Positions 17,424-63,966 of a stretch of 64,000 nucleotides of DNA are shown in pieces. The notes under the pieces are model-generated. The model was not told where the DNA came from and did not search any database. It saw only the letters and a program-made list of their open reading frames with translations. Origin of the DNA: a virus; the IMG/VR virus record IMGVR_UViG_3300039008_000031, positions 1 to 64,000 of that record. One strand, written 5' to 3'. Each line of letters opens with the position of its first letter. Position 1 is the stretch's first letter. The position numbers were made by a program, and so were the translations under genes.

Positions 17424-17429
17424 AACAAA

Positions 17430-17470
17430 ATATCCCCAGCTTCCAAATAGGAGGCTGGGGATATTTTTTT
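17430..17470 (+). terminator. Rho-independent terminator
   Basis: The 11-bp stem ATATCCCCAGC / GCTGGGGATAT is followed by T7, located 7 nt after the RNAP2 stop. Confidence 0.8.
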
Positions 17471-17533
17471 GACCAAACCCATCAAACGACGAGAAGAGCA
17501 CCATGACCAAGCAATACTCGTCTAGCATTATTT

Positions 17534-17576
17534 AAACCAAAGACACAAGAACTGTTTCTTTTTCTCTTTGGTTTTT
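17534..17576 (+). promoter_or_regulatory. 10-bp inverted repeat AAACCAAAGA / TCTTTGGTTT in the 5' leader of the AAA+ gene
   Basis: The arms at 17534-17543 and 17567-17576 are perfectly complementary. Both are instances of the recurrent AAACCAA / TTGGTTT motif pair. Confidence 0.5.
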
Positions 17577-17605
17577 CATTTCAACTCTAGCGAGGATATA
17601 AACTA

Positions 17606-18787
17606 ATGACCTCCAAGGTACTCCAACTCACTCCCAGTGAAACTTACGAATTCGTTGTTGAAGCTCTGGCATGTCGTCAGATTCCTTACATTGCTGGAAA
17701 ACCCGGCATTGGTAAGTCAGACATTGTTAAACAGGTGGCAAAAGATTCTGGAGCTGTTCTGATTGACATCCGATTGTCTCAGATGCTGCCAGAAGATCTT
17801 ACTGGTTTGCCTGAGAAAGACCCGAAGACAGGCAAAGCAACCTATGTGCCTTTCGATCTGTTCCCTGTTGAAGGGGATGTTGTACCGGATGGGTACAACG
17901 GCTGGATTGTCTTTTTTGACGAACTGTCCTCTGCTTCTGAAGAAGTTATGGCTGCGATCTACAAGGTCTTCCTTGACCGTATGGTAGGCCAGCACAAACT
18001 CCACCCGAAGGTGATGATCATCGCTGCTGGGAACCGTGCAACGGACAGTGCTATTGCCCGTGAACTGCCTGATACCCTGCTGACTCGTATGCTCCCCATT
18101 GAGATGAAGTCTCATGCAAAAGACTGGCTTCTGTGGGCTGACGGTGTAAGCTTCAAAAACCAAGCAGTCATTGATTTCATCAAGAAGAACCAGACAATGC
18201 TCAACTCTTCTCTCGATCCCAAAGATCGTGGGGAGCTGGAAAACACTGCATGTCCTCGTGGCTGGGCTAAAGTTATGGTCCACATGAATCGTCATGAGAA
18301 ACGTGCTCAAGCCAAGGCAAAAGATGCTGTGGATTCCTCTGGTTTGCCGATGGAATCGAACAAGGTTTCCGGTGCTTCTGAGCAAATCTCTACCCTCACA
18401 TATAACCTAATGGCTGCTGCCGTTGGTCATATGAGTGCTCGTGCATTCCGTGAGGAGTATGATGAAAGCATCAAGCTGCCTTATCCGTGGGAAGTGGCTC
18501 AGGCTCCTTCGTCTACCCGTATCCCCACTACAACTGCCGGTAAGGTCAACCTCACTGCCTCTTTGGCAGAATACTTCTTGGAAAGCCCTGAGAACACTCG
18601 TGAGAACGTACTGTCCTACATGAATCGTATGGGTGGGGATCACAGCCCTGTGTTTGTGGAAATGCTGAAAGAAGGTTTGGGGGCTACACCCTCTGACCTG
18701 AAGTTGATCGAAACCGTGTGCAAACGGCTGAACGTAACTTCGATTCCTGATGTCGCCGGAGAGGTCGACAAAGAGTTCCCTTTTTAA
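17606..18787 (+). CDS. AAA+ ATPase (MoxR-like)
   Basis: Walker A is GKPGIGKS, Walker B is WIVFFDELS, and a sensor-like AAGNR is present. It is paired with a downstream vWA protein, as in N4-like phages. Confidence 0.8.
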   Translation: MTSKVLQLTPSETYEFVVEALACRQIPYIAGKPGIGKSDIVKQVAKDSGAVLIDIRLSQMLPEDLTGLPEKDPKTGKATYVPFDLFPVEGDVVPDGYNGWIVFFDELSSASEEVMAAIYKVFLDRMVGQHKLHPKVMIIAAGNRATDSAIARELPDTLLTRMLPIEMKSHAKDWLLWADGVSFKNQAVIDFIKKNQTMLNSSLDPKDRGELENTACPRGWAKVMVHMNRHEKRAQAKAKDAVDSSGLPMESNKVSGASEQISTLTYNLMAAAVGHMSARAFREEYDESIKLPYPWEVAQAPSSTRIPTTTAGKVNLTASLAEYFLESPENTRENVLSYMNRMGGDHSPVFVEMLKEGLGATPSDLKLIETVCKRLNVTSIPDVAGEVDKEFPF

Positions 18788-36910: not shown

Positions 36911-37027
36911 TGCTGGGCGGGTACAGTCTTGCAACGGCATTGTCTCGTGGAAGAACTGTTCCTTATGACCTGCTGGGGTTAGTCGCAGGTCTGGGGGTTC
37001 AATCCCCCCTACAAATTGGAGGTTCCT

Positions 37028-37225
37028 ATGAACCAAGAAAATGAAAGAGTGGCACAACTGTCACACACTCTGGCAAAAGAGGATCGAGATCTTCGCACCA
37101 TCAATATGATGCGTGCAGCCCTAATCAAAGGGGAACAACTCGATCCTGATACAGCTAGTCTTGCTCGTCTTGAACGGCGTGCTTTGAAAGCACAACGTCG
37201 GAAAGGAAAAGTAAGTGTCCGCTGA
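37028..37225 (+). CDS. Hypothetical protein (65 aa)
   Basis: A GGAGG lies 5 nt upstream of ATG 37028 (MNQENERVAQL...). Confidence 0.55.
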   Translation: MNQENERVAQLSHTLAKEDRDLRTINMMRAALIKGEQLDPDTASLARLERRALKAQRRKGKVSVR

Positions 37226-40008: not shown

Positions 40009-41283
40009 ATGCCTATGAACCAAGAACAACAGGCAGCGTTTATTGATCTCATTGGGTTCATCAACGATCCTGACCGGAAATACCATCGAGTATCGGGTGG
40101 AGCAGGCACAGGCAAAACCTACTTCATCTCACAGGTCGTTGATAACCTTCTGAAGCATAAACAGCCTTCCTGTCCCCTGCATTCTGTAGGGATTACTGCC
40201 ACTACAAATAAAGCTGCAGCTGTTTTGGCAGAAGGAATTCCACACCGTCGTACTGAGATCGGAACGATCTATAGTTACATGAATCTTCGTGTGAGTGAGA
40301 ACTTCAATACCGGCGAAGTCAAATGTGTTCCTACCCGGAACTGGACTGTCCATCAGGGTGTTCTGATCATTGTTGACGAAGCGTCCATGATTAACAATGC
40401 CCTGATGAATTACATCGAGAAAGGTACCAGCAATACCTGTAAGGTTCTTTTTGTTGGTGACAAAAACCAGCTGTCTCCTGTGAAAGAAACCCTCTCTCCA
40501 GTCTATGCCAACAGCTACTCCGAAAGTCAGCTCACCAAACCAGTACGAAATGCAGAACAGCCTGCACTGATGGAGCTGTGTGAGCAAGCCAAAGATACGG
40601 TACTGACTGGGAAATTCCATCGAATCAAGGAAGTTCCCGGAGTTATTGATTTCATTGACGGAAACCAGCTGAAAGGTATCCTTGAACGAGAGTACCACCA
40701 AGAGGATGCTTCCCGTCGTGTGATCTGCTACACCAATGCTCGGGTACAGCAATACAACAGTTTCATCCGAGAACTCCGTGGCTATGGGAAATTGTTTGCA
40801 AAAGGTGAAATGCTGACCAACAACTCCTCTGCTGAATTGGTTGGGAAGGAGCGGCTCTACACAGACCAGCTTGTCGAAGTCATGCAAGTAGGAACCCCCT
40901 ACATTGATAGGAAGATTGTTCCCGGACATGACATTGAAATGGTTGATCTGGAAGTACGGGATCCAAAAACCTTCGCCATGTATATGGTCACTGTGTTTGC
41001 TGATCCTGAAGATCGTAACGAAGTCATCAAACACTATGCTAGTTTGAAAAAGTGGGACCGGTACTTCAAGATCAAGAACAACTACCCTGATCTTCGTTCT
41101 GTGGCTTCTTCCACTACCCATAAAGCCCAAGGCTCCACCTACCACTCAGTGATTGTGGATCTGGCTGACATCGGGAAATCCACCAACAAGGAACAGACGG
41201 CACGTCTTCAATACGTGGCTCTGAGCCGTCCAAAGTCCCGGATCTATATCCGAGGTGAACTACCAGAGAGGTATTTCGAATGA
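40009..41283 (+). CDS. SF1 DNA helicase (Dda/RecD-like)
   Basis: The motifs are GGAGTGKT (Walker A), IIVDEASMI, FVGDKNQLSPV, TTHKAQGSTY and YVALSRPKSRIYI. Confidence 0.85.
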   Translation: MPMNQEQQAAFIDLIGFINDPDRKYHRVSGGAGTGKTYFISQVVDNLLKHKQPSCPLHSVGITATTNKAAAVLAEGIPHRRTEIGTIYSYMNLRVSENFNTGEVKCVPTRNWTVHQGVLIIVDEASMINNALMNYIEKGTSNTCKVLFVGDKNQLSPVKETLSPVYANSYSESQLTKPVRNAEQPALMELCEQAKDTVLTGKFHRIKEVPGVIDFIDGNQLKGILEREYHQEDASRRVICYTNARVQQYNSFIRELRGYGKLFAKGEMLTNNSSAELVGKERLYTDQLVEVMQVGTPYIDRKIVPGHDIEMVDLEVRDPKTFAMYMVTVFADPEDRNEVIKHYASLKKWDRYFKIKNNYPDLRSVASSTTHKAQGSTYHSVIVDLADIGKSTNKEQTARLQYVALSRPKSRIYIRGELPERYFE

Positions 41284-49962: not shown

Positions 49963-50002
49963 TTCTGAGTGATCAGTCTTGAAGACGTAGGTTTTGAGCC
50001 TT

Positions 50003-50037
50003 GTGGGGAGTCCGTACAAATCGAACTCCCCACTTTT
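50003..50037 (+). terminator. Rho-independent terminator after the SSB gene
   Basis: The 9-bp stem GTGGGGAGT / ACTCCCCAC is followed by TTTT. Confidence 0.7.
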
Positions 50038-50988
50038 GTGGAAGTTACGAAAACCAAACGGAAATCGTGCAACCTCAATGAGTATCGAAACCTACACCAC
50101 CACTTGCTGAACAAGCAGAAGATCAACTTCAAAGCCAAGGTCAAGAAGGCCATCGAGGCACTTAATCCCATGGATACAATTGCCATTCATTATACCATCT
50201 ACGCACAACGTAATGGTCGGATGGATACCATGAATGTTGGCTCTGTAATTGATAAGTATTTCTCAGATGCTTTGGTGGAACTGAATAAACTAAGGGATGA
50301 TGACTATACGAATATCGTATGGATCTCCTTCTCTTTTGGTGGTGTGTCAAAGGGAAACCCCCATGCCATCGCAACAATAACCCCTGTGAGAAAGAAAGCT
50401 GATATGCGTATTCTTCTTGAACAGACGGAAGTCATTGAGGCCCTTCTGGCTGAACTGACCGAAGATCAGATGCAGGTTGCTATTGGCAACTACGTCCGTA
50501 ACACCATCGGTCTGGAACCCAAGGACATCGTTATCTCCAATGATGACGAACTCTCCGTCGAAATCTTTGCTGGTCCTTCGACTGGCTCTGCCCCGGTACA
50601 GAAAACCAAGGCAAAACCGAAGACTACCCGTACACGTAAGCCGAAACCTACACCGGAGAAAGAACCGGAGGATAAGGCTGATGTGGATGGATCTTCTGAA
50701 ACTGGCAGCGATGACAGTGGTAAAGGAACTGGCGGAGGAGCAGATACAGACGCTCCGGCAGAACAAACCGAAGCCCCCGTCAAAGCCAAGAAATCGGCAC
50801 TCTTCGACAATGATGAAGAGACCGCAACCAAAACTGATACCACCGAAAAAAGCTCCAAAGGTGGTGCAGCAAAAAACCTTTTCACGGACGAGGAAAACCA
50901 ATCCTCCAGTGATCAGTCCGAAGAAGGTACTGGTGACGCGAAAGCCGATTCAGTGAAGACCGACAAAGCGTCGATCTTCGATGTTTGA
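50038..50988 (+). CDS. RusA-like Holliday-junction resolvase domain + long acidic/Lys-rich tail
   Basis: The segment NLNEYRNLHHH...AIHYTIYAQRNGRMDTMNVGSVIDKYFSDALVELNKLRDDDY parallels the RusA pattern N..YR...D.DN...K...DAL...DD. The start is uncertain: the tracked start at 49969 lies inside the terminator, and GTG 50038 follows it. Confidence 0.45.
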   Translation: MEVTKTKRKSCNLNEYRNLHHHLLNKQKINFKAKVKKAIEALNPMDTIAIHYTIYAQRNGRMDTMNVGSVIDKYFSDALVELNKLRDDDYTNIVWISFSFGGVSKGNPHAIATITPVRKKADMRILLEQTEVIEALLAELTEDQMQVAIGNYVRNTIGLEPKDIVISNDDELSVEIFAGPSTGSAPVQKTKAKPKTTRTRKPKPTPEKEPEDKADVDGSSETGSDDSGKGTGGGADTDAPAEQTEAPVKAKKSALFDNDEETATKTDTTEKSSKGGAAKNLFTDEENQSSSDQSEEGTGDAKADSVKTDKASIFDV

Positions 50989-51175
50989 TCAGATCAAAGG
51001 GCTACTGGTGGTGATCGCACTGGTAGCTGCCTTTTTCGCTATTCTCTTCCTTGGTTCCATTATCGTAATGGTGATTATTGGGTTGCTGGCTTTCGCTGGA
51101 GTCCTTTTCGTCATTTGGTTCTTTTGGCAGATGGCGGTGGAGGAGATCCGATCACACAAACGGGAGAAGCGGTAA
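50981..51175 (+). CDS. Small two-TM membrane protein (64 aa)
   Basis: The sequence is LLVVIALVAAFFAILFLGSIIVMVIIGLLAFAGVLFVIWFFW. It overlaps the upstream stop. Confidence 0.55.
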   Translation: MFDQIKGLLVVIALVAAFFAILFLGSIIVMVIIGLLAFAGVLFVIWFFWQMAVEEIRSHKREKR

Positions 51176-51184
51176 CGCTTCTCC
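51163..51184 (+). terminator. Hairpin enclosing the last plus-strand stop codon (terminator-like)
   Basis: The structure is GGAGAAGCG-GTAA-CGCTTCTCC, a 9-bp stem. A U-run appears only after 9 nt. Confidence 0.4.
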
Positions 51185-51834
51185 TACTCTGAATTTTGAT
51201 GAGCTGTGGCGCACTGTGAACCCGAAGTTGACCTCCGTACAAGGTAGTTAGGGTTGCATCAGTACCGGAAAATCGCTTGTGAGGTTGCAAACTCATAAGT
51301 AAGAGTTCCCAAAGCTGAGCTTAGCGCGGTATACGCGGAGTATGCAGGTAGCCCAATGTGGGCCAGCTCATTCAAACTCAGAGACCCCCTTTCGAGGGGA
51401 AGCAGGGCGGTAGAGGACATTCCTTCCGTTGGTTCTCCCGTCCTGCTGGGAATTGTGGACCATGTGTAGTGATCATGAAAAGCAATGCTGACGCAGGGCA
51501 GTATCACAGCCTGCAAGCGGCGACATGGGTGCTTTGAACCGATGCGAACCGGAAGCTACTCCCGAAGGCTCACGACCTTTAAGAGCAAAGGGATCACGGG
51601 GAGGGGTAATAGGCCATACCCTCCCCGCCCGATCCACAGAAAATCCAACATAACTGATGAGACTTTATGAGTCGAAACGAGAAATCGTCTTATGTGTTTA
51701 TGCCGTAGAATAGGTCTTCTGTGGTATTTTGACAGCTATCGAAGGTGAACATTCAGGGTTGCTCCTGACGCCATAGAGGCACAAAGCCATGAGTAAAGGG
51801 TGGACTCCTTGTAGTATCCTCATGGAAGGTTTTG

Positions 51835-51890
51835 TCCAAAGCCAAAGATGGGAACAGAGAGTTGGTTGCTCTTCTTTCTCTGTTCCCATC
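51835..51890 (-). terminator. Rho-independent terminator of the vRNAP gene
   Basis: The 13-bp stem GATGGGAACAGAG / CTCTGTTCCCATC starts 7 nt after the vRNAP stop. On the minus strand it is followed by TTTGGCTTTGG. Confidence 0.7.
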
Positions 51891-51896
51891 AGATCC

Positions 51897-54800
51897 TTAC
51901 TTGTTGGCCCAATCTGCAGCGTTAACCCACGGGTTTAGTTCAGGTGCTCCGAACAACATCTCATAACCCATGGAATAACCCAGCTTGTCATCAGCAATGA
52001 CCGAGAAGATGTTGTCCTGAATTGGGCTATCTTCTGTCAGACCACCTGTCACAAATGCCCGTACCGGGTTCTCCCGAAGATGTTGCATAGCAATCTTAGC
52101 GATACGCAGTTTGAATGCGAAGAACCAAGTACCTCCAACACCTTCCAGATAGGAACGTGTACGACCCGGCAGAACAGAGAAATTAACAAACTCTTCGTTC
52201 ATTTTAGCAATAGCCGTATCGTGATCAAAGCCTTTAGCAATCAAGTGATCATAGTAGATCGCTTTTGCAAGGAAGTCTCCGTACTGAACAGCACGGTTTA
52301 GTCCTTTGTAAAGAGCAGTGGACTTCCCTACCAAACCATACTGAACAACAGTATTTACCTTAGCAGGCAAAATACGTTCAGCAGTCTGTTCAACCCAATC
52401 TCCCAAATTTCCAGATGTCAGTTCGACATCCAAATCTGTCAGACCTTCAGACAAGTTCTTGTATGCACCTGCCTCAATCAGAGGAGCAATGGACATACGT
52501 GCATTCAGGTCATCCAGAGACTGGATACGTTGTTCTAATACCTTGGCACGATTAGAACCCACACCTGCAAGACGTACACGAGCCTCCAGTTCAATCTTCT
52601 CTTTGACGTTCTGGTTATACTTCTCAACCTCTGCCAGCTTCTCACGGAAACCTTTGTACACCTGTTTGGTGGGTACCCCACGAGTGGTCAGCTGGATCAC
52701 GTTTGCCTTCAGGTTCATCATAGGAACGACCATAGACCGAACCACGATAATATCCTTAGCAGACGAGATGAGCTGCTGTGCTCCTGTCTCAAAGCTCCCA
52801 ACTACCTTCAGGGCCTTATCTCCAAAGAACATCGTTGTAACGCCTGTGACCGTGTTCTGGACGCTCTTAGGCAGTCGTGTCTTGCCAGACCACATGTCCA
52901 CCACAGAAGCTTCACGATAACCCAGAGCAAGGTTGATATGGTCTTTCCGTACCCAGAATTGTTCACCAAATTGGGAAGCAATGTAGTTCTTGGTTTGGAT
53001 AGGGATTACCCGGTAAGTCTCCTTATAGATCTCATCTTTCAGATCAGGATCAGCAATGTTGATAAACTGATTATCCGTACCCGGTTCCCGGTTATCGTAG
53101 ATAGATTTCAGCTCATCAACCACAGCCTTATTGTATTCCTTTGCTGCAGTTTCTTCGACCTGACGGCCAGCCCACGAACCAAGCATAAGAGCAAGGTTCT
53201 CATCAGGCTCCATGATACGGTCCAGAATATCCGGGTTAATAGCACGTTCAAAAGCTTCCACTTCCCCGTTCTCATCAAAGATCGGAGTCAGAGTTTCTTT
53301 GGCTTTTACCTCATCCGCTTCCACATCTTTAAGGATTTGATCCTTGGCTTCGCCAGTGATGATCCCAGAAGTGGTACCGTTAACCGTAAGGCCGGTATCC
53401 ACATCAACCCCCCGGTAGGTCAGCTGAGCCTGTTGGATAATCCCCTGAGAATAGTTACCTTGAGTTTTGGCAGTATTCACAAAGTAGGACTTGCTAAAGA
53501 TCGAAGCATCTTCAGCAGTTGCCGGAGCCAGTTCGGTATATCCTTCGGCTTTGAGCTGGTTGGCGTAATCGGTCGGTTTGATTTCAATACGAACATCCTT
53601 CTTACCATGGTTCGGGACATACCCTTTGTACCCGTTAAGACGGGCTTTCTCAGAGATGTCCTTTGCATCTTCCTGAGCATTCAGGTGCTGCATATATGCC
53701 ACAAGATTGGCAACTGCTTTAGGTTCGTTCTGGTACATCTCCACAGTCTGTTCCCGCATATCCGGGTCCATGTCTCGCAGAGCATACAGAGAAACCAACT
53801 GATCAATGGTCCCGATCATGTGGGGTTTAGGATCACCATCCACCATCTGATCAATAGCATACGCATTCCGCAGCAAGTTATGGCCTGCACCCTGACCATT
53901 CATGTAGGCTGCCAGTTGTTCTGCTTTATCCAGAACATCCTGAGCCACGTAAGGCAGATACTCATCACGAATATCCTGTTCCAGACGTGCGATTTCCTTG
54001 TTGCGAATACCTTTCTCGGAAACAAAACGGAAAACCTTGTTCAGAGAACCAAGAGAAGTAAGTGCCTGAATATCTGTTTTTGCCAGAGTATTGAACATCG
54101 ACTTCCACTGGGACGCATCCGGGTGAGTGGTAAACCCATTCTGCAGAATAACCGGAAGATCTTCCCGGAATGCCTGACGAGCAGCAGATACAGCATGGTT
54201 GGTTTTATCGAGAAGAGCCACAAGGTTCTTATTCGAAGCATCCGTACCCACAACCTCAGATACCAGTTCCCGTACCGGAGTAAGAATTCCTTCCAAAGGA
54301 ATTCCCGAGTGGGTCAGAGCTTTAGCCCCTTCAGCAGTAATTGCAGCACGGTCACTGTCCAACAGGTTAGCAGCCAAAGAAACAGTATTCCCCAAACCTT
54401 TAGTAAGTTTGTGGTGCTCGCTTTCCTGAAGCTGTTGGTTCTGATCAGACACGAAACCAGCCAGAGAAGAGAAGGCATCTTTCATTGTGGTATCTGCAAT
54501 ATCCAACCCACGACCAATAGTCTGAAGACCGGTGAACTCTTTCTGAAGGTCCATCCGAACAATAGAGTAGTCCAGAGCATCCAGAACCTCTTTGGAAGAC
54601 TTACCTGCAGTGTCGATAGATCCTGTTACTTTACGCATCAGGAAGGACACAGCCTGAGTCAGCCTACCGTTGAGATCTTGGGTGTGTGCCTGTTCAGGCA
54701 TGGTTTCCAATTGATCCAAAGCATTACGGAAGGTTTTGGAAGTTTGGGAGAGCGCAAGAAGCACAGCAACTGCATCAGAAATTCCTTCTTTGTTTTTGGT

Positions 54801-57800
54801 TTTACCCATCAGATCCATGACTACAGAGAACTTCTCCTGAGCCTGACGACCCTTGCCAAAGCTTTCAGGGGTGAGGTTCTCTACCACATATTCATGCGTC
54901 TTCTGGAGAACCAGAAGAGAAGCACTATCCAGTTTCATTTCCGTAGCCATCATCATGTGAGTAGCCAAGAAAATCTGTTGCTGCTCCGTAGTCATCGGGA
55001 AACCATTACGGTTCAGGTCGTCCATAGTTTTAAAAGCAGCATTGCTATAAGCAGGCAGCTTTTCACGCTGTACGAACGCATCAGTTTCATGGGATACTGC
55101 CAGAAGGTCACGAACCATCTGAACCCAATGATTGGTGTTGTTCGATGCCGGGGGGGTGATTTCTCCATCTGAATTGTCACCACCATTGTTGTTGCCGTTG
55201 TCCGAGGGGACTTCGTTGAGCACTTTGGTGTTGAAGACAAGATTGTCAAAGATGTTCTGAGGAACACCCCCCATAACCCGACGCATCAAAGCCACCACAG
55301 ACTTAACAATACCCACAAGAGTACGTGTTTTCGTTTCTTTCAGTGTCTTGATAAGATCTTTGTTGGTCAGGCCCCAAGCCATAAACTCATTCAGAGCAGC
55401 AGCTTTTGCAAATGTTGTTTCCTGTGTCTGATGCTGCAGGATCGCTGCACGAGCAGAATTGGCCCCTGCATTATCTACAGCCAATTCCATAAACTCATCC
55501 ATCAGCTTCTCAATACGAGAAACGGCATCATTCTTCTTGCCGCTATAATGAGCAAGCACAGTTTGGAAAGTGGCTGCATGGATCAGTTCATGAACCAAAG
55601 TCTCTGGATCCTTGGAAGTTGAGAAGATCACATTGTTGGCCACATCATAGTTGCCCTTACCTTCAAGGAATTGACCATCATCCGGGAAATTCTCCTGACG
55701 GTATTCATTGATCTGATCTACATCACCAATAATGATCTGAAGACCTGTAGGCAGCTTATCCTGAATAGCTTTGATCGACTGCTTCAGAGGACCAGACGCA
55801 TCTTTCAGAAGAGCAGACAAGGTAGCTTCCCCAGTGGAGATAACCAGTTCAGAAGGTTGTTCTTCCGTTTTGGTTTCTTCCACTTGGTTCAGTTCCTGAT
55901 GGATCAGCCGGTTAATCTCAGAACGAGTCAGTTTACCCCCTTCACGGGTAAAGCCCTCAGACGAACCTCCCATCTGATCAACAGTCAGTCCAATACGTTT
56001 GAAGACCGCTTTACGTGCTTTGTTCTGGCGGTGACGTTCTTCCAGATCAGCCATAAGGGCCTTTGCATCCTGGGCAGTTACAGAGCTGTTCTTGGACTTG
56101 CCTTGAACGTTGGTAAATGCCTGTGCCACCAGAGGATCATTACCTACATGGTTCAGGAAAGACTGGAAGTTTGTAACTGCCGAACCAAGAACATCACGAT
56201 CCCAAGAGGCCAGAACCTGTTGGTTTACATGTTGGGCGTATTCCTTAACTTTGTTAACCGGAACGTCGATACCATCAAAGATAGGCAGCGTGTCACCCAT
56301 GGCACCTTGAGAACCGTAAACAAGGTTCATCATCATGGCATCCCCTGTACCAATAACAGAGAACGGAATTGCCTTCACACCTGCTTCACCCGGAGCAGGA
56401 AGTGAAGACTTCTGACGAAGCTTCTCATTCATGTTGGAGGACAGAGTGTACGGAGACTGTTGGTTATCAAAACCAGCAATAGCAAGAGTCTGTTCATCCG
56501 ATGCAAAAACCGGAGCCAGAACCGAAACCTCTTTGACCACAGAGTCGTAATCACGCTTGCTCAAATTGGTAACGATTGCTTTGCCTTTCTTGTTCCGACG
56601 AACCTTCCCTTCTTTAGCACGTTGTTCTACCAGCTCTTCCAGCTTGGTTTGGAACACGAGACTCATGTACTCAGTCTGAACGTTAGAGGTGAAAACCAAG
56701 ACATCATTCAGTTGAGCGATCTTATCACCCAGAACTTCTTTGGCTGCATCAGACAAAACCTGACCCAGAGTCTGAGAGATATTCTTACGGAATTCTTCCA
56801 CAATGTGGGGTTGGAAGGTGAAACGACCATCTTCCAGATCAGCAGGAAGCTGTCCTCCGAACAGGATTTCAATGTCCTGTTCAAAATGAGGATAACCAAA
56901 AAACTCAGCCCGATCAGCACCTTCTGGCAAAGATGCAATTTTGGAATAAAATTCTTTGATCATATCGTCTGCAACCCCTTCACCAACACCTTTGACCCCA
57001 GAACCGTAGTTCACTTTGGTCATCGGGTTTTTAGCAGTGTTACGGGTCATTTCGACTTTACCATCTTCATTCATGGTAAAGTTACCAAACACAGCAGCAA
57101 ACCGTGCAGCGGCATACATACGCTGTTTATCCGCCTCTTTCCCTTCACGGGCCAGTTTAGCCATAAGACGTTCACCAGCACGAGAAACAGTCTCATACAG
57201 GTCAGTATTACCAGAAGAGAAGAACTCGTTCACAGAACCAAAAGAGGAACCAAGGAAGAAACCGATACGGTTGAAGTTATCAAAATCAGCCTGAGTGATT
57301 TCACCTTGTCCGAAGTTTACCATCATGTTGGCTGCACCATTGGTCAGACCATCCAGTTCAAAAGACAGGGAAGTACGGAATTCTTCCTTACCGTTCTCTT
57401 TGGCAAACTCCATCTCAGCTACAGCATGGATTGCAGCAAGCTGCTGCATCTCAATCTGGCCAGTCTCTTCAACGAGAGCTGCACCATCCATTTCTCCACC
57501 CCGGAGCCACTCTTTCACCATATCCACAGCACCTCGGTACTTGCCAAAGAACTGGTCTTGAACCGAAGCAAGAATATCGCTGTGATTTTTCTTCTCAACT
57601 TTGAACATGTCAGAAGCTTGAGCAACACCCAGCCAGAAACCATCCAAATCATTCATAGATACGGTGGACCAAGTGGGAGTAACCAGAGCACGAAGAACTT
57701 TGTTGGACTGAGGGTTCACACCTTTGAACTGGTGACGACCAACACGAGTGATCCCTACCGGGTAGTAAACCGGAGTATCTTCTTCAATCAGGTTAATAAC

Positions 57801-60800
57801 ATCCTGAGCATCCCGAATGTCTTTCTGGATCGAACGGTTCTTACCTTCCACAGAGATCAACAGGGATTGGTTGGTACCCTCCGAGACCTCTTGGTAGCCT
57901 AGCATATCTTCCAGAGCCTCACCACCCATTGCTTCGACCAGAGCGATACGCCCATGGTCAGCATAGTGAGGAGTGTCCTGCATCTTCTTAAGAGCAGTAC
58001 GTTCCAGTTTGGACAGAGCCACATCAGAGCGGTTCTGTGTATGGGATACGGTATGGATTTTCTCTCCAACCGAAGGTTTCTCACCCCGATCACCGGTCAG
58101 AAGTTCACGAGCAGTGGTAATCGTATCTTTGGTTGAGCTGTCCTTAATCTGTTGCTGGATCTTCTCCAGACCTTTCACGTTGATCGTGTTAGTGGTTGTA
58201 GGGTTGCCTTCAGCATCTTTGGTTTTCAGAGTAACCACTTCAATCAGATCAGTATTGTCAGCAATGGTAGATACCATCTCTTTGACAACACCTTCAATGA
58301 TACCTCGGGATTGTTCCAGAGGAGCATCCACATTCACACGAGCACCAATGAAGTCCATGGCAGAGCGGGCAATTTGCTCCATAGCCTGTGCAGGAGGAAC
58401 ACCATACAAGATGTCCTCAAGGTTCTCTTGGTTCACGTCGTTCTCAGACAGACCCAGAGTCTCAAGGGTCTCGTCAATACGAGAAGGGTCGGTAGCTGTG
58501 ACAGTGGTAAGCCAATCTACAACTGCCAGACCAACCATCTCGACCATATCCTGATCATATTGACCGTCTTCATTCACCATAGCGGTGTTACGGAATTTCA
58601 TCAGAGCAGTGAGGTTGTCACCATCTGCCAGAGCCTCTGTCACAGTCCGCTTGTCCTTGGAACTGATAGTTACCTGAGTCAGACGACGGTTCATACGTGT
58701 GATAACCGGCTTCAACAGTTTCTGTGCAAAATTCGTGTAGGCTTGGGAAACGTTCCCGTTCTCAGCAACCACATCCATAAACTGTGACATATTTGTCACA
58801 TCTTGGGTTGTCAGGATGTATGTTTCCGAGAAGGCTTCCGTTGGGCCAGAGACTCCCTGATCTGTTTCAATTCTTTCCTGCGTCTCTGCCTCTTTAGATC
58901 CTGCCACGCTATCATCCCGATCCCCAGTGCCATCACCAGTATCGTCATCAGCCCCGTGAGTATCAGAATCTTTAGCATCACTTGCCTCCTCTTGCTCGGC
59001 CACTTCTGTCGCTGGCGCGTCAGAAGCATCCTCGACAATCGTTGTGTCGTCGGTGGTCAGGGTAACAATCTCAGGGATTGTCATACCCTCAAACAGCTCA
59101 GGGAAGCTTTCCTGAACCAACGAAAGAACTTCAGTGGTCATCCGTGCATCATTAGCCACAGTCTCTGCAAAGGCCACAGATTTCGGGCTACCAGAGTGAT
59201 AGGCCATCGGAGCTGCATTACCAGTTGCACCGGGCTGGATGAACTTCACACCACCTGCAAGGCTTACGAAAGGAATGGACGGACCTTTGCCATTACGGTT
59301 CTGTTCCTTGGATGCCTTCAGAGCACCTACTTTGTTATTCATATGGATAGCAAAGTTGACGAACTGTTTAGCCAAAGACTGAGCAGGGATTGCCACACCA
59401 TCTGCACCAACAAACGTTCCATCAGGGGATTGTGCAGCAGTGAAGATGTCGGCAGCAAAGTCATTCACCGAACGAAGGTTTTTGCCTACGGCATCTCTGA
59501 AACCAGAGATAGCAATGGAGCGGCTGGTTTCATCAATGGTCAGAGCAGCAGGCAATTTCGAAGGGTTAGCCTGATAAGCGGGCTTCTTCGACAAAGCAAT
59601 GCGTTCACGACTGGAAATTTCAACCTGTTCTTCGACGTGGGTACCAATAGCCAGAGCAATCTTCTGTGCCTGACCAAGGATGCGAACATCTTCAGCAGAC
59701 AGATCAGAAGGAGCCTGTTCAAGGATCTTCCCTACAAATTCAGGGTTAACGTTTGTGGGATTGGTTTTGGCAACCTGTACAGCAGCAGATACCGAGTTCT
59801 CATTGACCTCAGTTTCAACAGTCTGGAGTTCGTTCAGGTCAACCTTACGAGCAGCCTTCATGACCTTCTGAACATCAGGGGACTGAACCAAGGAAGCAAT
59901 CTCACGCTGAACCTGTTTAGGCATTGTAGGAGCTGCATTGGACAGAGTTTGAAACTGGTTTTCTGCATACAGAGTTTCAGCCGGAGTCAGCTTATTAACC
60001 CGGACCTTCCCTTCAGACAGGGTACGAGCAACACCGATAGCATTGGAGATCGGAGAAGCAGTCTCACGAGAGAATTCCCCGAAGACTTTAGGAACCGAAA
60101 TACCATCAGCCTGAGAAGCCATTTGTTGGAAGGAAGCAGTGTTAGCTTCTTCACTTTCCAATGCTTTCTTGGTTGTGGCAGCCAGACGAGAAGCCTGAAT
60201 GACCAGTCCTTTGCGTTTCTCTTTACCTTGGGTAGCAAGATCAGACACAGCATTGGTGATAGGGGCAGCAGCTTCAACAACCGGCTGGGCCTTGTCAGCA
60301 ACGATTTCAGCAGCCTGACGGGTACGTTGAACAACTGGGGTAACAACAGGAGCAGCTTTCTCTACAACCGCTTCTACGGCTTTAGCACCGGTGCTGATTG
60401 CTTGTCCTGTAGCTTTTGCAGTTGTGGCAGCCCCTTCACGAACAAGAGGACTTTTTGCAGCTTCTACAGCTTGTTTGGTTACAGCACCTGCAACAGAGGC
60501 AGCAGCTTTAGGGGAAGTAGTAACCCCTGCCATACCAACACCACCGATAGCACCTGTGGCCAACTCCTCACCCACACCTTCATGGATGAGACGTTCATCG
60601 TCTACGTTATCACGAATAGCAATATTTTGGGTAAGGCCACTGGTACCTCCTTGCAGAGCTTCTTCCACACCTTGGGAGATAACAGAACCCGGACCTGCAC
60701 CAAGAGGGGAACGTTCAAACTTACCTCCTACCAGACCCAGAGAAGATGAAATGGGAAGTTGACGAATAAACGCCATCTCTGCAGTTGCAGAGGCAAAACT

Positions 60801-61790
60801 GCGTTGTGCTTCTTCAGGAGAAACACCTTCTTCAATCATTGCACGATACTGAGCAGAACCAGACATCAGTTTGTCATGGGACATTGCCATAACTTCATTG
60901 ATGGTCTGAGAGTACGTACCAGAGGCTTCAGTGACACCTACACCTGCAGCAGTACCCAAGGTCTGTGCAACCGTATGTGCAGTCTTGTTCGCAGTAACCT
61001 TGGCTGTAGCAGCAGTTGCCAGTTTGGACACACCAGAGGCAATCTTAGCCGAAGGGATAAGGGAACCAACACCTTCTGCAATAACGTCACCAGTGATTGC
61101 AGCATCATTAAGAATACGACCACCTGCATTTACTGCATCTCGACCAATGGCACGAACAGCAGCTTCAAAAGGATCCATACCTGTTTGTAGATCTTCCTGA
61201 AACTCTTCTTGGCTATCCATAGCATCCAGAGCACTTTCAATTGCTTGGAGTCCACGACGTTCCTGAAGTTCAGTAGAGGCAAAGCTTTTGATGCCTTCTA
61301 CAGCTTCTGCTGTACCTTGAGAGACGGCAATAGAAGCATCCCGAAGACCTGTGTTCTCTTCATCAAAGAACTCGTCTACAGCACCACCAGCTCCCAGAAG
61401 CAAGGAAGAGGAACTCCCTACCAAACCAGTAAGACCTGCAGCAGTAGTACCAGCCGTATCACCAGCAACTTGTCCAGAAGAACGCTGCTGTTGACGGATA
61501 CGATTCACATTGGAAATACTGTCTTGGATACGAAAACGGTTGTTTGCAACGTCTTCGTCATATTTCTGGACCAGCTCACCGTAGGACAGATCCATAAGAT
61601 CAGAACCAAAACCCTCAGTAGCGAGGCGGTTTCCTCGATCTTCGGCTACAGCAAGGACATCAAGAGCATCCCGGTTTTGAAGGAAATCTTTGATAATATC
61701 CCCACCAGAAGCAGGAGAAGGAGCTGCATCTTTTGCAGCTCCTTCAACGGAAGTTCCCGGTACGATTGAGTCAAGATTAAATCCAGCCAT
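51897..61790 (-). CDS. Virion-encapsidated giant RNA polymerase (N4 gp50-like vRNAP)
   Basis: The product is about 3297 aa from ATG 61790 (MAGFNLDSIVPG...). The tracked start at 62093 would overlap the upstream gene by 269 nt. T7-like motifs occur with N4-like spacing: A is SFELDGLTNGAANMM, B is RNTAKNPMTKVNYGSG, C is LPIFDGIDVP. Confidence 0.9.
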   Translation of the reverse strand: MAGFNLDSIVPGTSVEGAAKDAAPSPASGGDIIKDFLQNRDALDVLAVAEDRGNRLATEGFGSDLMDLSYGELVQKYDEDVANNRFRIQDSISNVNRIRQQQRSSGQVAGDTAGTTAAGLTGLVGSSSSLLLGAGGAVDEFFDEENTGLRDASIAVSQGTAEAVEGIKSFASTELQERRGLQAIESALDAMDSQEEFQEDLQTGMDPFEAAVRAIGRDAVNAGGRILNDAAITGDVIAEGVGSLIPSAKIASGVSKLATAATAKVTANKTAHTVAQTLGTAAGVGVTEASGTYSQTINEVMAMSHDKLMSGSAQYRAMIEEGVSPEEAQRSFASATAEMAFIRQLPISSSLGLVGGKFERSPLGAGPGSVISQGVEEALQGGTSGLTQNIAIRDNVDDERLIHEGVGEELATGAIGGVGMAGVTTSPKAAASVAGAVTKQAVEAAKSPLVREGAATTAKATGQAISTGAKAVEAVVEKAAPVVTPVVQRTRQAAEIVADKAQPVVEAAAPITNAVSDLATQGKEKRKGLVIQASRLAATTKKALESEEANTASFQQMASQADGISVPKVFGEFSRETASPISNAIGVARTLSEGKVRVNKLTPAETLYAENQFQTLSNAAPTMPKQVQREIASLVQSPDVQKVMKAARKVDLNELQTVETEVNENSVSAAVQVAKTNPTNVNPEFVGKILEQAPSDLSAEDVRILGQAQKIALAIGTHVEEQVEISSRERIALSKKPAYQANPSKLPAALTIDETSRSIAISGFRDAVGKNLRSVNDFAADIFTAAQSPDGTFVGADGVAIPAQSLAKQFVNFAIHMNNKVGALKASKEQNRNGKGPSIPFVSLAGGVKFIQPGATGNAAPMAYHSGSPKSVAFAETVANDARMTTEVLSLVQESFPELFEGMTIPEIVTLTTDDTTIVEDASDAPATEVAEQEEASDAKDSDTHGADDDTGDGTGDRDDSVAGSKEAETQERIETDQGVSGPTEAFSETYILTTQDVTNMSQFMDVVAENGNVSQAYTNFAQKLLKPVITRMNRRLTQVTISSKDKRTVTEALADGDNLTALMKFRNTAMVNEDGQYDQDMVEMVGLAVVDWLTTVTATDPSRIDETLETLGLSENDVNQENLEDILYGVPPAQAMEQIARSAMDFIGARVNVDAPLEQSRGIIEGVVKEMVSTIADNTDLIEVVTLKTKDAEGNPTTTNTINVKGLEKIQQQIKDSSTKDTITTARELLTGDRGEKPSVGEKIHTVSHTQNRSDVALSKLERTALKKMQDTPHYADHGRIALVEAMGGEALEDMLGYQEVSEGTNQSLLISVEGKNRSIQKDIRDAQDVINLIEEDTPVYYPVGITRVGRHQFKGVNPQSNKVLRALVTPTWSTVSMNDLDGFWLGVAQASDMFKVEKKNHSDILASVQDQFFGKYRGAVDMVKEWLRGGEMDGAALVEETGQIEMQQLAAIHAVAEMEFAKENGKEEFRTSLSFELDGLTNGAANMMVNFGQGEITQADFDNFNRIGFFLGSSFGSVNEFFSSGNTDLYETVSRAGERLMAKLAREGKEADKQRMYAAARFAAVFGNFTMNEDGKVEMTRNTAKNPMTKVNYGSGVKGVGEGVADDMIKEFYSKIASLPEGADRAEFFGYPHFEQDIEILFGGQLPADLEDGRFTFQPHIVEEFRKNISQTLGQVLSDAAKEVLGDKIAQLNDVLVFTSNVQTEYMSLVFQTKLEELVEQRAKEGKVRRNKKGKAIVTNLSKRDYDSVVKEVSVLAPVFASDEQTLAIAGFDNQQSPYTLSSNMNEKLRQKSSLPAPGEAGVKAIPFSVIGTGDAMMMNLVYGSQGAMGDTLPIFDGIDVPVNKVKEYAQHVNQQVLASWDRDVLGSAVTNFQSFLNHVGNDPLVAQAFTNVQGKSKNSSVTAQDAKALMADLEERHRQNKARKAVFKRIGLTVDQMGGSSEGFTREGGKLTRSEINRLIHQELNQVEETKTEEQPSELVISTGEATLSALLKDASGPLKQSIKAIQDKLPTGLQIIIGDVDQINEYRQENFPDDGQFLEGKGNYDVANNVIFSTSKDPETLVHELIHAATFQTVLAHYSGKKNDAVSRIEKLMDEFMELAVDNAGANSARAAILQHQTQETTFAKAAALNEFMAWGLTNKDLIKTLKETKTRTLVGIVKSVVALMRRVMGGVPQNIFDNLVFNTKVLNEVPSDNGNNNGGDNSDGEITPPASNNTNHWVQMVRDLLAVSHETDAFVQREKLPAYSNAAFKTMDDLNRNGFPMTTEQQQIFLATHMMMATEMKLDSASLLVLQKTHEYVVENLTPESFGKGRQAQEKFSVVMDLMGKTKNKEGISDAVAVLLALSQTSKTFRNALDQLETMPEQAHTQDLNGRLTQAVSFLMRKVTGSIDTAGKSSKEVLDALDYSIVRMDLQKEFTGLQTIGRGLDIADTTMKDAFSSLAGFVSDQNQQLQESEHHKLTKGLGNTVSLAANLLDSDRAAITAEGAKALTHSGIPLEGILTPVRELVSEVVGTDASNKNLVALLDKTNHAVSAARQAFREDLPVILQNGFTTHPDASQWKSMFNTLAKTDIQALTSLGSLNKVFRFVSEKGIRNKEIARLEQDIRDEYLPYVAQDVLDKAEQLAAYMNGQGAGHNLLRNAYAIDQMVDGDPKPHMIGTIDQLVSLYALRDMDPDMREQTVEMYQNEPKAVANLVAYMQHLNAQEDAKDISEKARLNGYKGYVPNHGKKDVRIEIKPTDYANQLKAEGYTELAPATAEDASIFSKSYFVNTAKTQGNYSQGIIQQAQLTYRGVDVDTGLTVNGTTSGIITGEAKDQILKDVEADEVKAKETLTPIFDENGEVEAFERAINPDILDRIMEPDENLALMLGSWAGRQVEETAAKEYNKAVVDELKSIYDNREPGTDNQFINIADPDLKDEIYKETYRVIPIQTKNYIASQFGEQFWVRKDHINLALGYREASVVDMWSGKTRLPKSVQNTVTGVTTMFFGDKALKVVGSFETGAQQLISSAKDIIVVRSMVVPMMNLKANVIQLTTRGVPTKQVYKGFREKLAEVEKYNQNVKEKIELEARVRLAGVGSNRAKVLEQRIQSLDDLNARMSIAPLIEAGAYKNLSEGLTDLDVELTSGNLGDWVEQTAERILPAKVNTVVQYGLVGKSTALYKGLNRAVQYGDFLAKAIYYDHLIAKGFDHDTAIAKMNEEFVNFSVLPGRTRSYLEGVGGTWFFAFKLRIAKIAMQHLRENPVRAFVTGGLTEDSPIQDNIFSVIADDKLGYSMGYEMLFGAPELNPWVNAADWANK

Positions 61791-61824
61791 ATTAAACCAT
61801 CCTAACGGTTTATCTGGCCCTTGA

Positions 61825-63966
61825 TTAGTTATCTTGAGCGATAAAAGGTGCCAGAAGTATTGCCTTCTCCCTGTTGGACAGGGAAGCGTCTGCATTGATG
61901 TGTCGCACAATTTGACGTTCGAGAGCAACCCTTTCTGGAGATCCTTGGGGAGTATCTTGCAAACGAGACAAATACCCAGTGCTTTGTAGATACTGAGTAG
62001 CCTCCTGACGAACAACTTCACGAAGTTCAGGAGTGGTTGCTCCTTCAACTTGAAGAGCCTTTGCCAGTCGATTTGCACTCGTAAGCACTTCACCTTTTTT
62101 CACAACATCAGCAATGAAGTCTGCACCAGAACGTCGATCAGTGATCGGGTTATCTTGGGCAAAAGACAAAATCTGAGACTGAACACGAGCAATCTCTTGG
62201 TTCAGTTCAGGAGAGTTATTCCCCCGTGCCTGACGTGTACGAAGCTGGTTAAGCTGGGTTTCCAGGTTTTCCAGTCTCTTGCGCTGTCGAGTACCGTAAT
62301 CACGACGTTCTCGATGACGACCAAGAGCCTGTTGGGACATGTTCGCACGAATATACTCTGCAGCACGTTCAGAAGACAGAACATTGGCCCAAGTGTTCAC
62401 CCCAGAAGGATCAGACTGGTAAGTCTCCCGGAGAGCAACTGCAGCAACTTCAGGGGTAACACCCGTAGCCTGAGCCAGAGAGTTAATCTGGTTTCGGACA
62501 TCATTCTTATCAATTGCCTCGGAACTAATACCCAGCTGATTAAGCAGAGTCCCTGCAGGATTCTCAACAAAAGCAGGTACTTCATTCAACAGACGTTCCT
62601 GAAGAGTAGCCTTGATAGCAGTAGAGGTGTCTTGATTGTAGCCAGACACAGCTCCAGCAATTGCCGGGTCTTCTGCAATAGAAGGAGTAGTTGCCTGAAG
62701 CACAGCCTCTGCAGCTTTATTCGAACGATCCAGAGCAGCAAGTTGCTGGTTGGGGGTAAGGTTCGAAACAGCCGAAAGAACGTCCTGACCAACAGCCTGT
62801 GTGCTGAGATTATCAGGATCCCGCCCAGCAGAAAGAATAGCAGCAGCTACTTGGTTAGAGGCATCTTGTTTTGCAAGATCATCAATTCGAGCCTGACCAA
62901 CATTCTGAGCTTTAATCAGAGGAGCCAGTTGAGCCTCAATCTGAGCAGGAGTGAACTGACCACTATCCACAAGTTGTTGACGTACAGCAGCAATTTGATC
63001 AGTAGCAGAACCGCCTCCATAACCACGGTAAGCACCGGTGTTTCCTTTGAATGTCTGTCCAGAAGCAGAACCAAAGAAATGATCACCATCAATCTTACGG
63101 AAGCTATCATTGCTCCAAGAAGGAACACCAGACACGGCGGGAATGACTGCGTAGTAGTTCAATGCACCACCAGTACGGTCTTGGTAATCCCCACGAAGAA
63201 TTGCATCAGCAGCGTCCATAGCTTGTTTGCTTGGTTGGAAGGACATATTTTGCCCTTGTTCACCACCTGCATAACCAGTGACAGAGTTCCAAGCAGAAAA
63301 CTGGCCCGGCTGCATGATTACACCTTCAATAGAGCCATCACCAAACTTACCAGAAGCAGCTCGGTTACGGATCACAGATCCGACATCAAGCATACCTTCG
63401 TAACCTTGGTTTCCTGCTTCAGCCTGAAGAGTACGAGCAAGCATAAGACGAGTATCCGCACCCGGATCACCTCGACCGTACTGACGACCAGTAGCAGCAG
63501 CTGTAGAAGCAATTCCTGCAACTCCCCGAAGAGCATCACGAGAAGCAATGCTATCGGCATACTTTGCAGCATTCCGGCCTTCTACAGCTTGGGCAATGGC
63601 AGTACGTGCTCGTTGTCCTGCAGTGCTGGCCCGAGTACCCTCAATATTGGCACGAGACTGACCATACCCCAGAACAGTGTCCCGGAGATTGAATACACGA
63701 TCTCGCATACCCTGAGAGATATTACGGCCTTCCAAGGCACCTGAATTAAGAAAGGAAGCAAGTTTGTCTTCACTGTCGATAGAGGCAATCTCTGTCAGCA
63801 GTTCGTTATCTGCCTTCTCTTCCTGACCAGTACGATACTGGGCCAGAACATTGTTGGCATTTTCAAAAGCACTGTTGAAGGCTTGGTTTGCATTAGCCAG
63901 AATTGCAGAAGTCCCCCGAAGATCGGGGGCAGCAATCTGACGCCATTGTAGACGATTATCAGCCAT
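61825..63966 (-). CDS. Virion protein with a SleB/Hydrolase_2-type cell-wall hydrolase domain
   Basis: The central segment MLARTLQAEAGNQGYEGMLDVGSVIRNRAASGKF...GVIMQPGQFSAWN...ALNYYA fits the SleB pattern. It is flanked by Ala/Gln-rich regions and lies directly upstream of the vRNAP gene. Confidence 0.65.
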   Translation of the reverse strand: MADNRLQWRQIAAPDLRGTSAILANANQAFNSAFENANNVLAQYRTGQEEKADNELLTEIASIDSEDKLASFLNSGALEGRNISQGMRDRVFNLRDTVLGYGQSRANIEGTRASTAGQRARTAIAQAVEGRNAAKYADSIASRDALRGVAGIASTAAATGRQYGRGDPGADTRLMLARTLQAEAGNQGYEGMLDVGSVIRNRAASGKFGDGSIEGVIMQPGQFSAWNSVTGYAGGEQGQNMSFQPSKQAMDAADAILRGDYQDRTGGALNYYAVIPAVSGVPSWSNDSFRKIDGDHFFGSASGQTFKGNTGAYRGYGGGSATDQIAAVRQQLVDSGQFTPAQIEAQLAPLIKAQNVGQARIDDLAKQDASNQVAAAILSAGRDPDNLSTQAVGQDVLSAVSNLTPNQQLAALDRSNKAAEAVLQATTPSIAEDPAIAGAVSGYNQDTSTAIKATLQERLLNEVPAFVENPAGTLLNQLGISSEAIDKNDVRNQINSLAQATGVTPEVAAVALRETYQSDPSGVNTWANVLSSERAAEYIRANMSQQALGRHRERRDYGTRQRKRLENLETQLNQLRTRQARGNNSPELNQEIARVQSQILSFAQDNPITDRRSGADFIADVVKKGEVLTSANRLAKALQVEGATTPELREVVRQEATQYLQSTGYLSRLQDTPQGSPERVALERQIVRHINADASLSNREKAILLAPFIAQDN

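Follow-up and report, generated by a model that had tools for sequence, protein, structure and literature searches.

What occupies the longest gap in the analysed stretch of an N4-like phage genome, at the point where two blocks of genes run towards each other? We analysed a 64,000-nucleotide (nt) stretch of the virus record IMGVR_UViG_3300039008_000031 (the window), which covers most of the genome of an N4-like phage that is kin to the Rhodovirinae roseophages. The spacer in question (positions 51176-51896, 721 nt) is the longest ORF-free (open reading frame-free) gap in the window, the runner-up measuring 254 nt, and is the junction of a rightward (replication) and a leftward (virion RNA polymerase, vRNAP, or late) transcription unit. 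An earlier reading of the letters alone, the original prediction, had set this gap against spacers of 0-100 nt elsewhere, which is approximately right given several other gaps of 150-254 nt, and had proposed that it encodes one large structured RNA. We found that the region is non-coding and carries functional-looking RNA structure, but no relative shares it as a whole and it does not behave as a single RNA. Our preferred reading, which we consider probable, is that the spacer is a mosaic non-coding junction in which a hammerhead ribozyme serves as a 3'-end-forming or insulating device for the rightward unit, and in which a second segment, module B, functions on its own as an RNA or as single-stranded DNA.

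A hammerhead ribozyme in the spacer

A weak Hammerhead_3 match in a first permissive Rfam scan pointed to a site around the hairpin ACGA-GAAA-TCGT (51677-51688), which had been listed among the stable local helices, with a GNRA loop. The hairpin exists, and it forms stem III of a complete type I hammerhead that reads ACAUAA-CUGAUGA-GACUU-UAU-GAGUC-GAA-ACGA-GAAA-UCGU-C↓UUAUGU (arrow, predicted cut).

51648..51695, plus strand: type I hammerhead (RF00163 alignment, descriptor and family model R2)
51648-51653 / 51690-51695, plus strand: stem I, 6 bp
51654-51660, plus strand: core CUGAUGA
51661-51665 / 51669-51673, plus strand: stem II, 5 bp, first pair G-C
51674-51676, plus strand: GAA
51677-51680 / 51685-51688, plus strand: stem III, 4 bp, GAAA loop
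After C51689, plus strand: predicted cleavage site (GUC↓U), a canonical GUC triplet
51634..51724, plus strand: extended hammerhead domain, in which a distal helix, CCACAGAA (51634-51641) with UUCUGUGG (51717-51724), encloses the ribozyme

The catalytic core is complete, with CUGAUGA, GAA, the A51677-U51688 (A15.1-U16.1) pair and a C rather than a G at position 17 (C51689). All three helices form and the pairs adjoining the core (10.1-11.1, 1.1-2.1 and 15.1-16.1) contain no mispair, as judged by cmscan and the descriptor; three helices and no mispair next to the core are the acceptance rule of Perreault et al. (2011, PMC3088659). Full-length fits to RF00163 and R2 assign a type I topology, with stem I open and stems II and III capped by loops. 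An Rfam/Infernal scan had been suggested as a check on the original prediction, and it returned none of the large-RNA families (see below) and a subthreshold match to RF00163. The hammerhead, the only element of the spacer identifiable with confidence, had been overlooked in the earlier reading. In a 161-nt scan the RF00163 alignment runs end to end without non-canonical pairs (26.1 bits, E = 1.2e-4); larger Rfam scans missed the hammerhead because of Infernal's filters. An explicit descriptor matched once in the window and in none of 300 dinucleotide-shuffled 64-kb sequences, and a relaxed descriptor covering all three topologies has an expectation of 0.01 matches per 64 kb. Model R2, a covariance model trained on 35 type I hammerheads from viruses with the window copy left out, was run unfiltered over the 64 kb and placed 51648-51695 first at 55.3 bits (E = 1.7e-15, E-values of such custom models being rough by design), the second-best match scoring 18.9 bits. 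The distal helix is present in the minimum free energy (MFE) structure, and the hammerhead fold lies at -20.8 kcal/mol compared to -22.5 kcal/mol for the MFE. Stem I has a large internal loop and the distal helix. Contact between stem I and loop II helps hammerheads to cut quickly at cellular Mg2+, and for such a contact we found no convincing complementarity to loop II. Membership in the phage hammerhead family is secure on sequence grounds, and we infer that the ribozyme is catalytically active.

Searches of the window and of the relatives revealed no further hammerhead and no ribozyme of another kind, apart from the second-best R2 match, a degenerate hammerhead-like sequence at 24588-24635 (plus strand, E about 0.002) that has CUUAUGA in place of CUGAUGA, lacks stem II and lies inside an 868-aa ORF (23693-26299). 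This match probably arose by chance or is what is left of a dead ribozyme.

Hammerheads are abundant in phages, and we found the core and stem II pattern in at least 119 IMG/VR contigs. Among the matches listed, to which all counts in this paragraph refer, type I cores of one shared architecture make up 108 of the 124, stems I and III varying freely; this is the informative figure, the 100% pairing in our alignment A4 holding by construction. The majority (99/124) are sense to a gene and follow it closely, an arrangement that favours transcription of the window copy from the plus strand only indirectly. Co-directional genes flank 81 members, with cores starting a median of 8 nt past the ORF end, and nine members are at convergent junctions; these context statistics use crude ORF calls (greedy selection of ORFs of at least 60 aa). 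No N4-like phage appeared among the contigs with the core, a literature search found no paper linking hammerheads to N4-like phages, and no relative has a hammerhead at the equivalent junction. When the spacer was compared to other hammerhead loci, similarity was limited to the ribozyme itself.

The window copy is identical to phage and prophage type I hammerheads (RF00163; PMC3088659) in its core, three-helix junction and GUC triplet, is likewise intergenic and sense to the upstream genes, and shares its stem II and loop with some IMG/VR copies (e.g. L036). Unlike them, it occurs in an N4-like (Schitoviridae-type) phage, is single, and sits 473 nt from the last ORF, where two gene blocks converge; typical phage copies instead follow a gene at a median of 8 nt, lie between co-directional genes and are often multiple (PMC3088659).

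Two further settings of phage hammerheads came to light. In the T7-like pelagiphage HTVC031P (MH598800.1; our locus L035), complete type III and type II hammerheads at 291-341 and 1301-1361 are intergenic among the first small genes and unannotated in the record, and stem II of the first is nearly the same as that of the window copy. In two related IMG/VR contigs (L069, 2518-2625; L073, 3074-3181), a tRNA-Asp is followed, about 2 nt past its 3' end, by the start of a type I hammerhead belonging to this family, suggesting ribozyme-assisted processing of the tRNA 3' end. Hepatitis delta virus-like 'theta' ribozymes flank tRNAs in gut phages. The ribozyme in the window also follows a structured segment (module B and hairpin T2), but that element is neither a tRNA nor a known RNA gene, and its strand is ambiguous.

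Module B and the terminator hairpins

Upstream of the ribozyme lies a segment shared with one distant relative, and three strong hairpins punctuate the spacer.

51445..51590, strand uncertain: module B, made up of five short hairpins (H1-H5), their loops conserved and their stems covarying, common to the related locus L020
51163..51184, minus strand: T1 hairpin (GGAGAAGCG/CGCTTCTCC), an inverted repeat overlapping the stop codon of the 64-aa gene
51591..51635, minus strand: T2 hairpin (GGATC..GGGGAGGGG-TAATAGGCCATA-CCCTCCCC..GATCC), with homologues beside the vRNAP stop in loci L006 and L020
51847..51890, minus strand: T3 hairpin, an inverted repeat with a 14-bp perfect stem and a 16-nt loop, right after the vRNAP stop
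50981..51175, plus strand: gene for a 64-aa hydrophobic protein, last of the rightward block and left flank of the spacer (ORF list)
51897..62093, minus strand: vRNAP gene, 3398 aa, right flank of the spacer (ORF list)

The whole 245-nt spacer of L020 aligns to 51445-51655 (nhmmer E = 1e-12). With T2 left out, module B aligns to L020 at a Smith-Waterman z of 9, and none of 2000 dinucleotide shuffles reaches the observed score. L020 is 59% identical to the window in the vRNAP C-terminus and 48% in the RusA-like protein (amino-acid identity), and four-fold synonymous sites in the flanking genes of the pair are 22-57% identical, so diverged that a neutral spacer should be unrecognisable; this argues that module B is under constraint. 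RNAalifold finds stems whose pairs change together between the two sequences (e.g. CAUG/CAUG for CCGG/CCGG and AAGG/CCUU for UUGG/CCAA). Compared to 300 column shuffles, with the terminator excluded, the z of the consensus energy is -5.25 (minus strand) or -2.6 (plus strand), and the fold contains 12 (minus) or 10 (plus) compensatory pairs where about 4.7 +/- 2 are expected. For the minus strand the shuffles give 4.5 +/- 2 such pairs, and none of the 300 attains the observed value. Six or seven pairs containing G-U are specific to the minus strand. A single-stranded stretch, AGCAAUGCUGA (51481-51491), is also conserved, and we found no convincing target for it in the window.

The conserved segment amounts to about 190 nt (module B plus T2) and is common to one distant lineage only: L031-L033 are identical copies of L020, which is the single lineage with module B among the contigs fetched, and a covariance model of module B run against all fetched loci returned no more copies, with a partial match to T2 in L006. 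Pattern scans with the T2 loop and the module B block gave L006 alone in IMG/VR and four chance matches inside genes in bacterial genomes. L034, a close relative of L020, has just a 43-nt hairpin at the junction and no module B, so that module B and T2 behave as a cassette. Homology with covariation across equivalent spacers was expected of a single large RNA; sequence is shared no further than 51445-51655 (with L020) and T2 alone (with L006), and no homologue spans the region. We regard module B as a candidate new conserved RNA or DNA element that is absent from Rfam, the sequence evidence being too thin to give it family status.

The stronger consensus fold on the minus strand, and the G-U pairs found there only, raise the alternative that module B works as a minus-strand RNA, either the extended 3' untranslated region of the late (vRNAP) transcript or a small RNA running from T2 to T1, or as DNA hairpins in replication, for example a priming site. 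T1 has a minus-strand T-tract that such an RNA could use, and covarying stems with conserved loops would equally suit DNA hairpins recognised by a protein. However, on the minus strand module B lies downstream of the strong terminators T3 and T2 with no evident promoter there, the comparison involves two sequences only, and we know of no precedent for an RNA or DNA-hairpin element of this kind at this position in N4-like phages. We consider this alternative unlikely, although it fares better than those discussed below.

The terminator-like hairpins reported on both sides of the spacer (T1 and T3) are indeed G+C-rich stem-loops followed by minus-strand T-tracts. The 10 nt past the stems of T1, T2 and T3 hold five, six and six Ts on the minus strand and four, one and three on the plus strand, the T-tract of T3 being TTTGGCTTTGG. 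A terminator scan flagged T1 as a minus-strand terminator; the loops of T2 and T3 exceed the length that the scan permits. With their G+C-rich stem-loops and U-tracts all three have the sequence features of intrinsic terminators, and because the T-tracts lie on the minus strand we read them as putative terminators of leftward (vRNAP) transcription. As in other convergent gene pairs, G+C-rich hairpins stand where two transcription units meet, but relatives L021, L024 and L034 have a single such hairpin where the window has three in tandem over 720 nt. Unlike those of ordinary convergent-gene terminators, the T-tracts here are restricted to the minus strand and the loop of T2 is unusually conserved.

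In L006 and L020 just 5-7 nt separate the T2 homologue and the vRNAP stop, the outer helix has compensatory changes among relatives, and the 12-nt loop (TAATAGGCCATA) is conserved in three diverged phages, which suggests a role beyond simple termination. Judging from these homologues, T2 is the ancestral terminator of the vRNAP (late) transcript. In the window it lies 261 nt from the vRNAP stop, so that 51636-51896 (about 260 nt) is a lineage-specific insertion, one that brought in both the plus-strand hammerhead and its own terminator, T3, the apparent present-day terminator of vRNAP.

The plus-strand block before the gap encodes Sak4-like, SSB and RusA-like (49969-50988) proteins and then the 64-aa protein, whose gene has a codon-usage score of +0.24 and a syntenic small membrane-protein gene in relatives. 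The ORF on the right matches vRNAP genes of Dinoroseobacter, Roseobacter, Sulfitobacter and Ruegeria phages (Rhodovirinae), and Pfam vRNAP domains are present on the same contig as found elsewhere.

The remaining spacer and the junction in relatives

Outside module B, the ribozyme and the terminators, the spacer consists of two lineage-specific parts.

51185..51444, no strand assigned: module A, lineage-specific, a predicted multi-helix domain closed by 51187-51206 / 51364-51383
51386-51399 (CCCCU-UUCG-AGGGG) and 51401-51447, no strand assigned: further hairpins of module A (fold prediction)
51725..51846, no strand assigned: module C, tail of the lineage-specific insert, with no identified feature

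Every helix listed in the original prediction is present in the sequence where it was placed, and the proposed long-range pairing grows to the 20-nt helix that closes module A, with 85% complementarity; the closed domain is plausible, but as an energy prediction only. What did not hold up is hairpin density as a signal. The spacer folds with z-scores of -4.4 (plus) and -4.3 (minus) compared to its own shuffles, but sixteen 721-nt windows of the same genome average -3.4 (standard deviation 3.3), and its MFE of -0.356 per nt falls within the -0.255 to -0.360 of those control windows. Among 133 windows of 240 nt the mean z is -1.33 (standard deviation 1.56), with sub-windows of the spacer ranging from +0.7 to -4.3 and module A from -2 to -3.7, inside the genome background. 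Coding regions of this phage fold as well as the spacer does relative to shuffles, and since control windows fold similarly, the claim of unusual structure fails. The GGTTGC direct repeat, reported three times, occurs four times, and 64% of genome windows of the same size contain some 6-mer at least four times.

One ordinary intergenic region, 17400-17640, folds better than the spacer (z = -6.9): one hairpin there is a 17-bp terminator ending in a U-run, and another long one is built on a recurring AAACCAAAGA motif, which stands ahead of several gene starts in the window.

Known-RNA scans of the spacer were negative beyond the hammerhead. ARAGORN returned nothing, Rfam returned nothing at the gathering threshold, and the large-RNA families (GOLLD, ROOL, HEARO, OLE, group I and II introns, RNase P and tmRNA) gave no Rfam 15 match at gathering or E-value thresholds, in agreement with the earlier failure to match a tRNA, tmRNA or group I intron; the most permissive filter was applied to stretches no longer than 236 nt, and 51761-51896 was scanned at a less permissive setting. 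A match to the archaeal C/D-box RNA sR3 at 51189-51219 was rejected as spurious, its boxes carrying little information and its family belonging to another domain of life. Elsewhere in the window, a sequence within 36911-37120 (...CCTGCTGGGGTTAGTCGCAGGTCTGGGGGTTCAATCCCCCCTAC...) resembles the half of a tRNA that holds the anticodon arm and the T-arm; neither ARAGORN nor Rfam calls anything there.

A single RNA of at least 500 nt was rejected on three counts, namely no whole-length homologue, no Rfam large-RNA match and stability within the background. The spacer resembles GOLLD, ROOL and HEARO-type RNAs in being a long, ORF-free, hairpin-rich stretch in a phage, and differs from them in those same three respects. 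A narrower version joins modules A and B into one structured plus-strand RNA of about 450-500 nt whose 3' end is made by T2 and the hammerhead. The 3' edge of T2 is precisely where the distal helix of the hammerhead starts, a tRNA immediately precedes two family members among the matches listed, relatives carry other RNA-like elements in their spacers (element X and a tRNA-like gene, below), module A is predicted to close on itself through the 20-nt helix, and the GC skew of the plus strand persists across the spacer. Against this, module A has no homologue in fetched loci, GenBank phages or Rfam and is of ordinary stability for this genome, L020 has module B without module A or a hammerhead, module B folds better on the minus strand, and no promoter was found in the spacer, either by a search for a promoter motif shared among intergenic regions of the window or by a sigma-70 scan, which gave chance-level matches only. 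In its broadest form the idea makes the convergent junction of N4-like roseophages a niche for phage RNA genes, with the ncRNA (non-coding RNA) of modules A and B ended by a hairpin and a hammerhead, and with unrelated RNA elements in relatives; if true, this would be a ribozyme-terminated RNA gene in a lytic phage. We find both the narrow and the broad form improbable.

As far as the tools applied can see, the spacer is non-coding. Its longest ORFs are as claimed (85 aa, minus; 61 aa, plus; 63 aa, minus, the last starting within the 51877-51890 stem), and the codon-usage log-odds of all ten are negative (-0.04 to -0.47), whereas in-frame 60-codon chunks of real genes average +0.375 and eight of nine small real genes score positive. 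Searches of Pfam and PHROGs gave nothing credible, tblastx of the spacer against the loci of all relatives gave solely a nucleotide-level hairpin match, and a chimeric query that joined every six-frame segment of 25 aa or more matched none of 5.8 billion protein clusters at E <= 10. The BLASTX check offered against the original prediction, a hit to a pseudogene remnant, therefore came out negative in every frame, and a pseudogene or decayed gene was rejected on codon usage, PHROGs, Pfam, tblastx and the six-frame search together.

The junction varies widely among relatives. It measures 0-190 nt in GenBank relatives and 0, 42, 43, about 60, 209, 245, 277, 328, 488, 1060 and about 1240 nt in metagenomic ones, with unrelated contents that include extra small genes (L014, L025), a tRNA-like gene (L005) and element X. 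L015-L017 are the same phage as the window (0-4 differences), and searches for closer relatives that could inform covariation, by scans of IMG/VR and JGI with the vRNAP C-terminus, reached at most 62% identity; exact-protein look-ups recovered the same phage only. L016 differs from the window at four positions (51555, 51797, 51801 and 51822), all in the spacer and none in flanking coding sequence or within the hammerhead; three of these single-nucleotide polymorphisms (SNPs; 51797, 51801 and 51822) lie in the module C tail, where 51822 breaks a CCATGAG/CTCATGG hairpin, numbers too small for significance. For the tail we found no homologue, no protein match and, at the less permissive setting, no Rfam match.

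Element X is a conserved sequence of about 120-136 nt in L004, L005, L006 and L013.

L005 5258-5381, minus strand: element X
L006 4253-4388, minus strand: element X
L013 636-771, minus strand: element X
L004 3595-3730, plus strand: element X, corresponding to 40094-40229 of Ruegeria phage vB_RpoP-V13 (NC_049436.1)
Sulfitobacter phage vB_SupP_AX (OQ722443.1) 53576-53689: element X at a different intergenic site

Its closing helix is CUGGG/GCCCGG; one hairpin carries a conserved loop (UUCUGGAAACU) on a covarying stem and another is a GGAGAGAUGUGUCUCUUC hairpin, with compensatory changes at 11 of 30 predicted pairs in four sequences. Rfam holds no match, and in phage V13 the element partly overlaps the annotated hypothetical protein gp53. 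We consider it a candidate conserved RNA element of N4-like marine phages that is not in Rfam. It is absent from the window, and the possibility that module A is a diverged copy was rejected, as model R3 gave no match with filters off.

Other relatives' spacers hold further features. ARAGORN calls a tRNA-like gene (Ser, GGA) adjoining the vRNAP stop in L005 (5198-5273, minus strand), to which Rfam gives a weak match (tRNA-Sec, 26.8 bits), and L013 keeps just the 5' part of this sequence, as if truncated. In more distant relatives, L007 (about 5440-5480), L008, L012, L014 and L025, the long spacers from the small membrane-protein gene to vRNAP share GCTTGCTAGGTCGG(T/G)ATATAAAACATCAG followed by conserved sequence, and this motif may be a phage promoter for another non-coding transcript.

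Such variability is what one would expect if the spacer were mostly junk at a recombination or indel hotspot, with lost accessory genes surviving as decaying traces in module A and the module C tail, the hammerhead carried along as a relic and the terminators alone of consequence, and the spacer lengths and extra small genes of relatives, the truncated tRNA-like sequence in L013, the SNPs in the tail with their broken hairpin and the lack of a hammerhead in any relative all fit; but no frame retains a protein remnant even at E <= 10, the core and three stems of the hammerhead are intact with none of the four SNPs inside, and module B is conserved far above synonymous sites, making this the least probable of the alternatives.

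Cleavage at the junction and what it would mean

We return to the reading that we prefer, a mosaic junction with a working ribozyme and a separate module B. Rightward transcripts meet no hairpin with a plus-strand U-tract, so they would be expected to read through T1 and T2 into the hammerhead, which would then cleave itself after C51689. The upstream RNA would be left with the T2 hairpin and the stems of the ribozyme at its 3' end, closed by a 2',3'-cyclic phosphate, and the cut would detach it from read-through RNA antisense to the vRNAP message. The ribozyme would in this way form the 3' end of the rightward unit, or insulate it, at the convergent junction. Such a role agrees with the general suggestion of Perreault et al. 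(2011, PMC3088659) that hammerheads serve phages in the processing of long transcripts; what is unusual is the convergent placement.

Several points weigh against this proposal. The RF00163 score of 26.1 bits is below the gathering threshold of 34 bits, plain MFE folding favours an alternative pairing over stem III by 1.7 kcal/mol, and alignment A4 overstates pairing, since the descriptor that selected its sequences demands paired stems. The 473 nt that separate the ribozyme from the last ORF contrast with about 8 nt typical of the family, and since no relative has a hammerhead at the junction, the ribozyme may have arrived recently, as a passenger of no adaptive value. The argument that plus-strand transcripts pass T1 and T2 is drawn solely from the missing U-tracts. 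Module B is known from two independent sequences only, and its better-folding strand, the minus strand, is not the one that carries the ribozyme.

New here are the occurrence of a known type of phage hammerhead in an N4-like phage and module B as a candidate conserved element. Together with element X in the relatives, module B in the window gives N4-like marine phages two candidate conserved RNA elements outside Rfam. The hammerhead is single and intact, and its setting is unusually clean: it lies just after what appears to be the ancestral terminator, at a site where rightward transcripts would run antisense into the essential vRNAP gene. This setting makes a specific role, 3'-end formation or the insulation of convergent transcription units, directly testable.

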